DNA of 64,000 nt, from assembly GCF_013167455.1 (NCBI RefSeq), contig NZ_CP038328.1. One strand, given 5' to 3'. The DNA comes from Escherichia coli O157:H7 (GTDB lineage: Bacteria > Pseudomonadota > Gammaproteobacteria > Enterobacterales > Enterobacteriaceae). Of this stretch, positions 28,601 through 34,600 are shown piece after piece; position 1 is the first letter of the stretch; each line of letters opens with the position of its first letter. The position numbers are program-made.

Positions 28601-31600
28601 GGCAGGTTATCCAGCGAATAAGCAACCCTGAAGCAAGCATCGAGAGCTTGCAGGAACGGCGTTTTTGGTTGCAGTGTGAGCGTGCTTACACCTGGCAGCC
28701 GATCTATCAAACATGCGGGCGGTTAATGGCCGTGGAGCTATTAACGGCGGTCACGCATCCCTTGAACCCTTCGCAACGCCTGCCGCCGGATCGCTATTTT
28801 ACTGAAATCACCGTCAGCCATCGGATGGAGGTTGTGAAAGAGCAGATTGATTTGCTGGCGCAAAAAGCCGACTTCTTTATAGAGCACGGCCTGCTGGCAT
28901 CGGTCAATATTGATGGTCCTACGCTCATCGCCCTGCGTCAGCAACCAAAAATCCTGCGCCAGATTGAGCGTCTTCCCTGGCTGCGTTTCGAACTGGTGGA
29001 GCATATCCGTCTGCCGAAAGATTCAACCTTTGCCTCGATGTGTGAATTTGGCCCGCTGTGGCTGGATGATTTTGGTACCGGGATGGCAAATTTCTCTGCA
29101 CTAAGTGAAGTGCGTTATGACTACATCAAAATCGCGCGAGAACTGTTTGTGATGCTGCGTCAGTCGCCGGAAGGACGCACACTCTTTTCTCAGCTTTTAC
29201 ATCTAATGAATCGCTATTGTCGCGGGGTGATTGTCGAGGGCGTAGAAACGCCGGAAGAGTGGCGTGATGTACAGAACTCGCCCGCATTCGCCGCACAAGG
29301 CTGGTTTCTTTCACGCCCGGCACCGATAGAAACGCTGAATACGGCGGTTCTGGCGCTATAAGCTGCCTCATTTTCCGCCTGGCTGGACTATCTTTAGGAC
29401 TGGCACAGGAAGAATATGAGGAAGCGAACGATGAGCAAGGCAGGCAAAATAACCGCTGCGATTTCAGGGGCTTTCTTGTTGTTGATTGTCGTGGCGATCA
29501 TTTTGATTGCAACTTTTGACTGGAATCGACTCAAACCGACCATCAACCAGAAAGTCTCTGCGGAGTTGAATCGTCCGTTCGCTATCCGTGGCGATCTGGG
29601 CGTGGTGTGGGAGCGGCAAAAGCAAGAAACTGGCTGGCGCAGCTGGGTGCCGTGGCCCCATGTACACGCGGAAGACATCATTCTTGGCAATCCACCGGAT
29701 ATTCCCGAAGTCACGATGGTGCATTTGCCACGCGTAGAAGCAACGCTGGCCCCGCTGGCGCTGCTGACCAAAACGGTCTGGCTGCCGTGGATCAAGCTCG
29801 AAAAGCCCGACGCGCGCCTGATTCGCCTCTCTGAAAAGAACAATAACTGGACGTTTAATCTCGCCAACGATGATAACAAAGACGCGAATGCAAAGCCGTC
29901 GGCATGGTCGTTTCGGCTGGATAATATTCTTTTCGATCAAGGGCGGATCGCCATTGATGACAAAGTAAGCAAAGCGGATCTGGAGATTTTTGTTGATCCC
30001 TTAGGCAAGCCGCTGCCGTTCAGCGAAGTTACTGGATCGAAAGGTAAAGCGGATAAAGAAAAGGTGGGCGATTACGTTTTTGGCCTGAAGGCGCAGGGAC
30101 GTTATAACGGTGAACCGCTCACGGGTACGGGAAAAATAGGCGGTATGCTGGCGCTGCGTGGCGAAGGGACGCCGTTTCCGGTACAGGCTGATTTCCGTTC
30201 AGGTAATACCCGTGTTGCTTTTGATGGCGTCGTGAATGACCCAATGAAGATGGGCGGTGTCGATTTACGGCTTAAATTTTCTGGCGATTCACTGGGTGAT
30301 CTCTATGAACTGACGGGCGTTCTGCTGCCCGATACCCCGCCGTTTGAAACGGATGGTCGGCTGGTAGCGAAAATCGACACTGAAAAATCGTCGGTCTTTG
30401 ATTATCGCGGCTTTAATGGGCGAATTGGCGATAGCGATATCCACGGTTCTCTGGTCTACACCACCGGCAAGCCACGACCAAAACTGGAAGGTGATGTCGA
30501 GTCGCGGCAATTGCGGCTGGCGGACCTGGGACCGTTGATTGGCGTTGATTCCGGGAAAGGGGCAGAAAAGTCGAAACGGTCTGAACAGAAGAAGGGCGAA
30601 AAAAGCGTTCAGCCTGCGGGCAAAGTGCTGCCTTATGACCGCTTCGAAACCGATAAATGGGACGTTATGGATGCCGATGTTCGCTTCAAAGGGCGGCGCA
30701 TTGAGCATGGCAGTAGCCTGCCGATTAGCGATCTTTCTACTCATATCATCCTCAAAAATGCTGACTTGCGCCTGCAACCGCTGAAATTTGGCATTGCGGG
30801 TGGCAGCATTGCGGCGAATATTCATCTGGAAGGCGATAAAAAGCCGATGCAGGGGCGGGCAGATATTCAGGCTCGTCGACTGAAACTGAAAGAACTGATG
30901 CCCGATGTGGAACTGATGCAGAAGACGCTGGGGGAAATGAACGGTGACGCGGAACTGCGCGGTAGCGGTAACTCGGTGGCGGCACTTTTAGGCAACAGTA
31001 ACGGCAACCTGAAACTGTTGATGAATGACGGGCTGGTGAGCCGCAACCTGATGGAGATTGTTGGGCTGAATGTCGGCAACTACATTGTCGGTGCGATATT
31101 TGGTGACGATGAGGTGCGGGTGAACTGCGCGGCGGCGAATCTGAATATTGCCAACGGCGTGGCACGCCCGCAGATTTTTGCTTTCGATACTGAGAACGCG
31201 TTGATTAACGTTACCGGCACGGCAAGTTTTGCTTCGGAACAGCTGGATTTGACTATTGATCCGGAGAGTAAAGGTATTCGGATTATCACACTGCGTTCGC
31301 CGCTGTATGTGCGTGGGACGTTTAAAAATCCTCAGGCTGGGGTGAAAGCCGGGCCGTTGATTGCCCGTGGTGCTGTTGCTGCGGCACTGGCAACGCTGGT
31401 TACGCCAGCGGCAGCGTTGCTGGCACTGATCTCACCTTCCGAAGGGGAGGCTAATCAGTGCCGGACGATTTTGTCGCAGATGAAGAAGTGAAGATAATTG
31501 CCGGATGTCTGACATCCGGCAATTAAACAGATTTAGATTGTTGGCAAAGTGTGCTTTGTTCATGCCGGATGCGGCGTGAACGCCTTATCCGGCCTACAAA

Positions 31601-34600
31601 TCCTTGCGAATTCAATATATTGTATGGAAATTCAGGCCTGATAAGCGTAGCGCATCAGGCTTTTCACTCTTATTACAACGACTGATGTCGCGTCTCATGG
31701 GTCAGCAGCAGGGCGATTAACGTCAAGCCAGCCATCGCCGCCAGATATAACCCCACCGCACTTAGCCCGTAGTTAGTCTGCAACCAGGCTGCGATATATG
31801 GCGCAACGGAAGCCCCGAGAATCGACGCTACGTTGTAAGAGAACGATGCTCCGGTGTAACGCACTTCTGTCGGAAACAGCTCTGGTAACAGCGCACCCAT
31901 TGGCCCGAAGGTCAGACCCATCAGACTTAACCCCAGCAGCAGGAAGGCAAAAACCAGAATCGGGTTGCCAGAACCGAGCAGTGGGTTAAAGGCGAACAGC
32001 GCGAACAGGATGATCAGCGTGGTGATGATTACCATGCTTTTACGGCGACCAAAGGCATCAGCCAGTAATCCAGCGACTGGCACCATCACGCCAAAACCAA
32101 TAACTGCCATCATCAACATCCACAACACTTCGTTACGCGGCAGGCCAAGCCCAACTGGCGCGGCGGCGGTACTAAAGGTCATAGAGTAGACCGTCATGAT
32201 GTAAAACAGCGTATAGGTTGCCAGCATAATGAACGTACCCAGTACGGTTACGCGAACATGTTTGGTCAGCAGCGTACCCAGCGGGATCTTCACCTGTTTT
32301 TTCGCTTTAGCGACTTTCTCAAACACCGGCGACTCATGCAGCGACACGCGAACATACAGGCCGATAATGACCAGCACCGCCGAGAAGATAAATGGCACAC
32401 GCCAGCCCCAGCTCATAAACTGCTCGTCGGTCAGTAGCCAGGAAAGCAGCAAGAAAGTGCCGTTGGCAAAGAAGAAGCCAATCGGTGCGCCCAGCTGCGG
32501 GAAGGAGCCGTACAATGCACGTTTGCGCGGTGGGGCGTTTTCAGTCGCCAGCAGCGCCGCGCCGCCCCATTCACCACCTAAGCCCAGACCCTGACCAAAT
32601 CGAGCCAGCGCCAGCAGCAGCGGGGCGAAAATACCAATCGTGGCATAGCCTGGCAGCAGACCAATCACCACGGTCGAAATCCCCATCGTTAGCAACGAGG
32701 CGACCAGCGTCGCTTTACGCCCAACGCGATCGCCAAAATGACCAAAAACGGCAGAGCCAATGGGGCGCGCGACGAAGGCGATGGCGAAGGTGGCGAGCGA
32801 CTGTAGCGTTGCTGCCGTAGGATCGCCCTGCGGGAAGAAGATATGCGGAAACACAATAACGGCCGCAGTGGCGTAAATGTAAAAGTCGAAGAACTCAATG
32901 GCCGTGCCAATGAGAGAGGCGACAAGGACTTTATTACGCGAGTTGATCGGCGTGTATTCTTGCTCGTGGTCGAGTGTTGTGGCTGTTGCTTGCATAATCT
33001 TTTCTTATTTTTTGGCTAACGAATAGCCATATTACGCACAGCAAAAGTGATATTTCAATGTGTAACAAATCGCGGAAATGGTCAAAAACCAGGCAAAAAG
33101 GGGATAATGTTTAGGCCAGTGATTTTTCTTCTATGAAATGCTTCACATAATTTTATAAATAGTGGATAAAACTGGTTTCAGGTTAAATAAAAGTTACCAA
33201 CTGGATTTATATGCTGGGGTTATGAGTTGGCATGAAATTGTTTGCTCCTGAATAGATGGCTGAAGAGGCTCTGGGAAAGAGTTTCAAGAGGTTATGTGCG
33301 CATTATAGCCGGATGCGATGCTGGCGCATCTTATTCGGCCTACGGGGAGCCAGGCCGAATAAATTCGTATGCCGGATAAGGCGTTTTGAACTGCATCCGG
33401 CCTATTTTAAGGCTGCGTTTTCCCCGGCATTCGCGGGTCGTCTTTATATTCGGCGGTGGCAATCCACGCCGCGCAAAACAGCGTCAAACGGGCGAAGAAG
33501 TAGAAAAATGCCATCAGCCCCAGCACGGAACCAAATGCTGCGCCAGAGGGGGATTTCATCAACGATGGCAGGGTGTAGGTCATCACGATTTTAATCACTT
33601 CAAAACCAATAGCAGCCAGAAATGTTCCGCGAATCAGGGCTTTTTTGCGCGGACGGTGGCGCGGCAACCGCCAGAAGATCCAGAAGAAAAGCAGATAGTT
33701 GGCGAAGATGGAAATCGCCAGGCCAATCAACCGCCACGTCGGTTTCAGCCACTCAATGCTGTTCAGGTGCAGGGCGCTAATAATCATTTGCTGCGCCGAA
33801 CCGGCAACCGAGGTGATCGAAAGCGTCACAATCAGCGCAATCAACAAACCAATCAGCGAAATAAAATCACGCAGATATTTTACCCAGAACTTCTCCTGAT
33901 CTTGCGGCGAGCGTTCCCAGACATCGCGCGACTGGGCACGAATCGCTTCACGCAGGTTACCCATCCAGTTGATGCCGGAATAAAGCGCCACCGCCAGGCC
34001 GACAAGCCCTACAGTCGTACGCTGCTGAACGGCGGTGTTGATGGTGTTTTTCAACGTAGCGGCTAGCGTCGGATCGCTGATGTTTTGCAGAATTTTGTCG
34101 AAGATATCCTGTAGCAACATCGGATGGGAGGCCAGCACAAAGCCCCCTGCGGCAAACGACACCATCAAAATCGGGATCATCGACAAAAATGAGAAATAGG
34201 TGATAGCCGCACCAAACTGGTTACCCAGCCGATCGTTAAAGCGTTCTGTCGCGCGAATCAGGTGCGCAATAACCGGTTGGCGTTGGACTTTTTCGGCAGT
34301 GGTGGTGACGGTTTCCAGCGCCTGGCTAACTTTGCCGCCTTTCTCGCTATTATCCAACTGCTTAATCGGCTCGTGCTCCAGATCCTGGGTGGGACGTTTG
34401 ATCTCGTTTTCCTGCGTCATCCGCTCTTTTGTCCTTCTGTCGTGGTCATTCTTAAAAAGTATAGTCGGTCAGTCCAGGTACTCTTTCATTACGCCAGCCA
34501 GCCACTGCATAAACAGGTTTACACGCCGGGAAAGCTCCCGACGCTGCGGATAAACCAGCGAAAGGGAGAGCGGCTCGGCACGGTAGCCTGGCAACACTTC

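Follow-up and report, generated by a model that had tools for sequence, protein, structure and literature searches.

What are the palindromes on either side of the yhjE transporter gene of Escherichia coli O157:H7, and what do they do there? We addressed this question in a 64,000-nt stretch of the chromosome (RefSeq assembly GCF_013167455.1, contig NZ_CP038328.1), which we refer to as the window and in whose coordinates all positions are given. The original prediction for this locus, made from the sequence alone, was that canonical repetitive extragenic palindromic (REP) elements, clustered as bacterial interspersed mosaic elements (BIMEs), bracket yhjE, where they would stabilize mRNA or terminate transcription and could serve as recombination substrates. 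We found exactly four REP units in the whole window, all between coding sequences and two in each of the spacers next to yhjE. Their consensus identity, dispersed high copy number, potential to form hairpins on both strands, proximity to stop codons, and presence/absence polymorphism led us to assign them to the ordinary REP (palindromic unit) family of E. coli, arranged as two BIMEs. Taken as a whole, with the inferred roles discussed below, we give this explanation a probability of about 0.85.

Four REP units in two spacers

The strongest statistical evidence for REP identity comes from the tail motif CTTATCMGGCCTAC. With up to two mismatches allowed, it occurred five times in the 64 kb, against 0.33 matches expected, and none of 100 shuffled sequences reached five. 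Four of the five matches are the four REP units; the fifth, at 37383, was rejected as a REP because inspection of the sequence revealed no palindrome. All four units fold as imperfect palindromes of 29 to 36 nt whose stems carry an internal mismatch or loop, with hairpin z-scores of -2.4 to -5.1 (energies are given in Table 1). This agrees with the definition of the REP as an imperfect palindrome of 30 to 40 nt (PMC3333891, from which we also take the Y, Z1, and Z2 unit types, BIME-1, the L linker, and the GTAG tetranucleotide). Could the units simply be chance palindromes in GC-rich intergenic DNA? The 5'-half motif alone, again with up to two mismatches, was only weakly enriched (12 found versus 7.5 expected), as this explanation would have it. 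It is nevertheless refuted by the tail-motif statistics, by tens of near-identical copies per genome, and by paralogs that align over their full length. Alignment with REP families had been set beforehand as the test that could overturn the prediction, and the units do align with other REP/BIME copies in the genome.

The two intervals first proposed for the repeats require small corrections. The interval for the yhjG-yhjE spacer (31500-31660) does contain a BIME, but the palindrome at its start (31500-31520) is the core of a separate, non-REP hairpin (31495-31525). The REP content of the interval on the other side of yhjE (33308-33412) was borne out; its end should be moved to 33402 or 33403, since positions 33407-33409 are the stop codon of yhjD.

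Site 1 is the 181-bp spacer (31492-31672) that separates yhjG and yhjE, whose 3' ends converge. By its sequence, the segment at 31564-31660 is a BIME-1 (RIP), with a Y unit, an L linker, and an inverse Z1 unit in single copy; this is the arrangement by which PMC3333891 defines BIME-1, namely, a single copy, inverse Y and Z1 units, and a conserved long L linker that often holds a site for integration host factor (IHF). The Y unit, which holds the palindrome quoted in the original prediction, has no mismatch to either half of the REP consensus, and exact 35-nt copies of it exist elsewhere. Of 5,426 complete E. coli genomes, 5,425 have full-length matches to the 109-nt BIME-1, at a median of at least 40 places per genome. 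To obtain paralogs, we took the best match from E. coli genomes without the element at the yhjG-yhjE locus; those at yvcK-uvrB and fepA-entD align end to end with the site 1 element at 87 to 90% identity, and the L-linker core AATTCAATATATTG is invariant across all three. When genome contigs were scanned with AATTCAATATATTG, the matches listed included only chance ones in unrelated AT-rich genomes. Site 1 thus resembles the BIME-1/RIP (RIB) elements in the order and orientation of its three parts, in its single copy, and in its position at the 3' ends of transcription units, and PMC2892488 calls the site 1 element itself a RIP. It differs from them in the TCAG that its Z1 unit carries where the paralogs have GTAG and in the one mismatch of its IHF core to the consensus. 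The non-REP hairpin in the same spacer starts 3 nt past the yhjG stop codon; its GCCGGATG core is REP-like, but the hairpin as such does not count as a canonical REP.

Site 2, whose REP part spans 33308-33402, lies in the spacer that runs from the 3' end of yhjD to the region upstream of yhjE. BIME-2 elements combine Y and Z2 units, a short S linker, and s, l, and r flanks, usually in multiple tandem copies. Like these and other atypical BIMEs, site 2 pairs a 36-nt unit of Z2 length with an inverted Y unit, the CTAC/GTAG ends turned toward one another, and follows immediately on a stop codon. The differences are several: site 2 is a single pair, with no tandem array in any allele examined; its Z2-like unit has the Y-type G at position 4; its 23-nt linker holds a REP-head remnant; and its Y unit has GTAT for GTAG and an upper stem that is disrupted in the O157 allele. 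Megablast recovered the pair at its own locus only, and a more sensitive, lower-stringency search recovered it at a median of 20 places per genome. On these sequence characteristics, we would call site 2 a degenerate or atypical single BIME, a tail-to-tail pair that belongs to the dispersed family but is more diverged than site 1.

REP/BIME elements have been known since 1984. At the yhjE locus itself they are also already known, because the progressiveMauve paper (2010, PMC2892488) uses exactly this region, yhjE flanked by yhjD and yhjG with both spacers hypervariable, as the example in its Figure 9 and places there a REP element, a RIP element that has an IHF site, and, for the hairpin at 31495-31525, a terminator labeled "REPt." The K-12 RefSeq feature table annotates zero repeat features in the yhjD-yhjG region, and an Rfam search returned no match at site 1 or site 2. 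The stretch of ~2.1 kb around the elements is 100% identical to O157:H7-type chromosomes and ~98.8% identical to K-12, and the annotation of a 100% identical RefSeq record confirmed the gene name yhjE.

Table 1. Features of the yhjG-yhjE-yhjD region, in window coordinates
Feature	Position	Strand	Hairpin energy (kcal/mol)	Details
yhjG, coding sequence of an AsmA-family protein	29416-31491	+		TGA stop at 31489-31491; open reading frame list and RefSeq annotation of a 100% identical record
3' end of yhjE-sense RNA	31493	-		Equivalent of K-12 3676288(+); Term-seq, Supplementary file 1, M63 0.4 sheet (M63 glucose)
Perfect hairpin	31495-31525		-20.9 (z, -7.9)	TAATTGCCGGATGTC-T-GACATCCGGCAATTA; 15-nt arms, 100% complementary
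Canonical Y-type REP	31564-31597	+	-21.3 (z, -5.05)	GCCGGATGCGGCGTGAACGCCTTATCCGGCCTAC; CTAC at 31594-31597 (GTAG on the other strand)
L linker of BIME-1	31598-31631	+		34 nt; core ATTCAATATATTG at 31610-31622, one mismatch to IHF consensus WATCAANNNNTTR
Z1-type REP, inverted	31632-31660	-	-13.4 (z, -3.7)	Tail motif with 2 mismatches; paralog alignment; TCAG at 31632-31635
yhjE, MFS transporter	31673-32995	-		440 amino acids; open reading frame list and RefSeq annotation of a 100% identical record
Rho region, yhjG transcript strand	~31861	+		Equivalent of K-12 3675920(-); score 3.08, significance 9e-5, Supplementary file 2
Rho region, yhjD transcript strand	~33204	-		Equivalent of K-12 3674577(+); score 3.59, significance 8e-11, Supplementary file 2
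C-rich, G-poor tract, rut-like	33207-33307	-		C:G of 17:6, 16:6, 14:5, and 12:5 in successive 50-nt windows
Z2-like REP	33308-33343	+	-16.3	GCCGGATGCGATGCTGGCGCATCTTATTCGGCCTAC, 36 nt; CTAC at 33340-33343
REP-head remnant	33352-33362	-		AGGCCGAATAA, 11 nt; perfect inverted copy of 33331-33341
Y-type REP, inverted	33367-33402	-	-12.8 (K-12 allele, -21.9)	GTAT in place of GTAG at 33367-33370
9-nt match to IS1397	33387-33395	+		TGAACTGCA; first 9 nt of IS1397, within the inverted Y unit
yhjD, coding sequence	33407-34420	-		TAA stop at 33407-33409; open reading frame list and RefSeq annotation of an identical record

Variation of the two spacers among E. coli genomes

It had been suggested that REP copy number be compared at the two sites across strains. 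We made this comparison in the 5,426 complete E. coli genomes and found that both spacers are polymorphic, through replacement, loss, and interruption of whole elements and not through changes in tandem copy number. At site 1, 3,596 genomes (66%) carry BIME-1, which in ST131-type strains has a 3-nt deletion in the Y unit; 1,599 genomes (29%) carry an inverted pair of BoxC/TMECO triplex-motif repeats of 233 or 172 bp; and the remainder, about 230 genomes (about 4%), includes a 40-bp spacer with the hairpin only. Because BIME-1 is absent from a third of strains, any function that it has for the host must be dispensable. At site 2, the REP pair is kept in 4,808 of the 5,426 genomes (89%), in an O157-type form (411 of query length), a K-12-type form (410), and a form shorter by 18 nt (392, B2-type strains). 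Depending on the strain, then, either of two unrelated repeat families can be found at these two intergenic sites: BoxC/PIT/TMECO repeats provide alternative alleles at both spacers in other strains, but they are unrelated in sequence to the REPs and none occurs in the O157 window.

Individual strains illustrate these alleles. SF-173 (locus L003, 201-240) has a yhjG-yhjE spacer of 40 bp in which the hairpin is kept and the entire 141-bp BIME-1 segment is gone; its yhjE stop codon is TAG instead of TAA, and no target duplication is visible at the boundaries. The Y unit of ST131 strain 4224 (L006, around 285-300) has the 3-nt deletion and a base change in the 3' arm (ACGCCTCCGGCTTAC), which leave this arm shorter than that of the K-12/O157 allele. 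A BoxC/TMECO pair replaces both BIME-1 and the hairpin in M1 (L004, 201-433), Survcare321 (L005, 201-372), and WEC (L010, 2268-2500). The M1/WEC allele contains CCCTCTCCCTTTCAGGGAGAGGGCTGGGGTGAGGGT and the reverse complement of CCCTCGCCCCTTTGGGGAGAGGGTTAGGGTGAGGGG; Table 1 of PMC4666352 lists matching sequences as type B and type A-mm. In the yhjD-yhjE spacer of LR-28 (L008, around 190-287), a BoxC-type repeat stands in place of the REP pair.

Strain SK1144 carries an interrupted allele. Here (L009, 2677-4108), a 1,432-bp IS1397 sits in the loop of the Z2-like unit in the yhjE-yhjD spacer, with a 4-bp TGGC duplication. The junctions, GATGCTGGC followed by IS1397 and then TGGCGCATC, fall within the equivalent of 33308-33343, so the insertion has the central-loop position and the 3- to 4-bp duplication of an IS1397 target. 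Insertion of IS1397 specifically into REPs is documented. Because of this specificity, the insertion provides independent support for the Z2-like unit as a functional REP target. The proposal that the repeats could be recombination substrates found indirect support to this extent, namely, the strong polymorphism of both spacers across the 5,426 genomes and the use of the Z2-like unit by IS1397 in one strain.

RNA 3' ends and the possible role of the units

To place the units on transcripts, we used the K-12 RNA 3' ends located with Term-seq and the Rho regions defined with bicyclomycin by Adams et al. (2021; PMC7815308, Supplementary files 1 and 2), transferring the K-12 coordinates to the window by alignment. 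The yhjE-sense RNA ends in ...GGCAAUUAUC, 2 nt past the foot of the hairpin at 31495-31525 and 7 nt past its GC-rich stem. Thus, this RNA extends across both units of BIME-1 and has its end at the non-REP hairpin. The Rho regions lie farther along the other two transcripts, ~200 nt beyond BIME-1 on the yhjG strand and ~100 nt beyond the site 2 pair on the yhjD strand. The tract at 33207-33307, which is directly 3' of the REP pair on the yhjD transcript and coincides with the K-12 bicyclomycin-sensitive region, is judging by its base composition a likely candidate for a Rho-utilization (rut) or loading site.

These data speak against one half of the predicted role, that of the REPs as terminators. 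A scan for consensus terminators found no hairpin with a U tract at the four REP units on the transcribed strands. Its sole match in the region, 33308-33325 (+), is in the nontranscribed orientation and is a partial stem of 5 bp. With the K-12 yhjE-sense end at a non-REP hairpin and the Rho regions 100 to 200 nt downstream of the units, the terminator label is not supported for the REPs themselves.

The other half, mRNA stabilization, is plausible, as it fits both the layout and the literature on the family. Dar and Sorek (PMC6061677) described a process in which Rho terminates transcription downstream, exonucleases shorten the RNA, and the steady-state 3' end is fixed by a stable stem-loop that has no U tract. 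The layout of the yhjE locus matches this description, and the REPs most likely serve the yhjD and yhjG messages as 3' structural barriers. Under this model, Rho would terminate the yhjD and yhjG transcripts 100 to 200 nt beyond the REPs, the transcribed REP hairpins would block 3'-to-5' exonucleases, and the two messages would have their stable 3' ends at the hairpins; the yhjE message would pass BIME-1 and end at the non-REP hairpin. The hairpins are also within 15 nt of stop codons and may reduce how much the gene upstream is translated. Such an effect was attributed to REPs less than 16 nt past a stop by Liang, Rudd, and Deutscher (2015, as cited in PMC12306157). The foot of the inverted Y unit is 5 nt past the yhjD stop (4 nt between), and the Z1 unit starts 13 nt past the yhjE stop on the yhjE transcript (12 nt between), so both match in position. 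As DNA, the L linker is a probable binding site for IHF, going by the literature on the family (PMC2892488, PMC3333891), and the units would be targets of mobile elements specific to REPs, among them IS1397 and the REP-associated transposase.

Several observations weigh against this interpretation of the units. Two of the four lack the GTAG tetranucleotide. A search of the window for the IHF consensus gave 76 matches versus 58.6 expected, so the match in the L linker is not above chance on its own. About one third of E. coli genomes have no BIME-1 at site 1, and ~11% have no recognizable pair at site 2. In addition, the K-12 Term-seq lists that we searched contain no RNA 3' end at any of the four REP units; this is weak evidence, because low expression or the discarding of multimapping reads could explain it. 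Finally, the 3'-end and Rho data come from K-12 and not from the O157 background.

With chance palindromes set aside above, three other explanations have to be weighed. If the palindromes were Rho-independent (intrinsic) terminators of yhjG, yhjE, and yhjD, the "REPt" label of PMC2892488 would be apt, and the 7 nt between the GC-rich stem and the K-12 yhjE-sense 3' end would be the usual intrinsic distance. Both points concern the hairpin at 31495-31525, which has a weak tail (AAUUAUC) yet coincides with the mapped end. For the REP units, the explanation is improbable: none has a U-tract hairpin in either transcript direction, the yhjE-sense RNA passes both units of BIME-1, and on the yhjD and yhjG strands the bicyclomycin-sensitive regions are found downstream of the REPs. 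An equally doubtful alternative is that the site 2 pair mainly regulates yhjE at the level of DNA, as a gyrase or IHF site or a supercoiling insulator, and does not chiefly serve the 3' end of yhjD. The pair does lie upstream of yhjE, ~310 bp from the start codon, 33058-33029 (-) is a promoter-like site, PMC2892488 suggests regulatory divergence at the locus, and gyrase and IHF binding are established for the REP/BIME family (PMC3333891). Yet the pair adjoins the yhjD stop codon and is ~250 bp from that sole promoter-like site, its linker has no L motif, and the presence of a Rho region between the REPs and yhjE points to the yhjD transcript as the one that the REPs are part of.

A more serious rival is that the REPs are purely selfish or neutral, REPIN-like repeats spread by a REP-associated tyrosine transposase, with incidental RNA effects and no host function. 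The presence, absence, and replacement of whole elements at site 1 are as this would predict, as is the decay of the units, with GTAG lost in two of four, the 3-nt Y deletion in ST131, and the 18-nt site 2 deletion in B2 strains; moreover, the transposase acts on BIMEs (PMC3333891). On the other hand, units no more than 15 nt from the yhjE and yhjD stops and upstream of mapped Rho regions occupy positions at which REP effects have been demonstrated elsewhere, and a selfish origin is compatible with a co-opted function. We regard a wholly selfish or neutral nature as unlikely, though it is clearly the most credible of the alternatives, and retain the explanation of the units as ordinary REPs that probably act on the yhjD and yhjG messages at their 3' ends.

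A proposed IS1397 scar and its meaning

The inverted Y unit of site 2 differs from its K-12 counterpart by a clustered replacement (K-12, GGCGTTTACGCCGCATCCGGCC; O157 window, GGCGTTTTGAACTGCATCCGGCC) that accompanies the drop in hairpin stability listed in Table 1. The O157-specific bases TGAACT, together with a shared GCA, make up the first 9 nt of IS1397. In EcPF15, an IS1397 flanked by a GTTT duplication occupies an identical Y REP at a different locus, and the junctions read GTAGGCCGGATAAGGCGTTT followed by TGAACTGCACCCC at one end and TTCAGTTCA followed by GTTTACGCCGCATCCGGC at the other. The 9-nt match in the window, TGAACTGCA, sits exactly at the junction of an EcPF15-type insertion. 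If IS1397 enters the K-12-type allele in this way and a deletion then joins the GCA of the IS end to the GCA of the REP, the exact sequence of the window results, with the length difference of 1 nt. On the strength of this sequence match, we modestly favor the view that the inverted Y REP of the O157 lineage is the scar of an IS1397 insertion that was then almost completely deleted through GCA microhomology. Gene conversion from an identical donor REP would also account for the O157 allele but is not supported: no other locus shares a 28-nt exact word with it (median of 1 place per genome).

The insertions in the Z2-like loop of SK1144 (TGGC) and the Y REP of EcPF15 (GTTT) are alike in that IS1397 entered a REP loop. 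The O157 window differs in that it holds no IS1397, just 9 nt that match the IS end, located at the expected junction. No genome was found with an intact IS1397 at the inverted Y unit, which leaves the scar hypothesis without a living intermediate; half-REP/IS1397 junctions are present at other loci in many genomes. The scar looks like a small new point of this analysis.

Elsewhere in the window, four Rfam matches scored above the gathering score: the GadY small RNA (42809-42922, -), the rdlD antitoxin RNA (7562-7627, -), the ES205 small RNA (48701-48772, -), and the shuA/chuA 5' untranslated region thermoregulator (58443-58474, +).

As a whole, the finding is correct but ordinary, and it matters little beyond the correct annotation of the locus. 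What the analysis adds is a precise unit-by-unit map of the O157 sequence; allele frequencies in complete genomes that amount to whole-element replacement, with BIME-1, a BoxC pair, or neither; and public 3'-end and Rho data that speak against the name of terminators for the REPs. A minor curiosity is the proposed scar, which could guide a search for similar footprints elsewhere. If it is real, insertion sequences that target REPs would leave recognizable scars that reshape REP hairpins, and if stop-proximal REPs restrain translation and protect 3' ends, expression of yhjD would have been changed in the O157 lineage.

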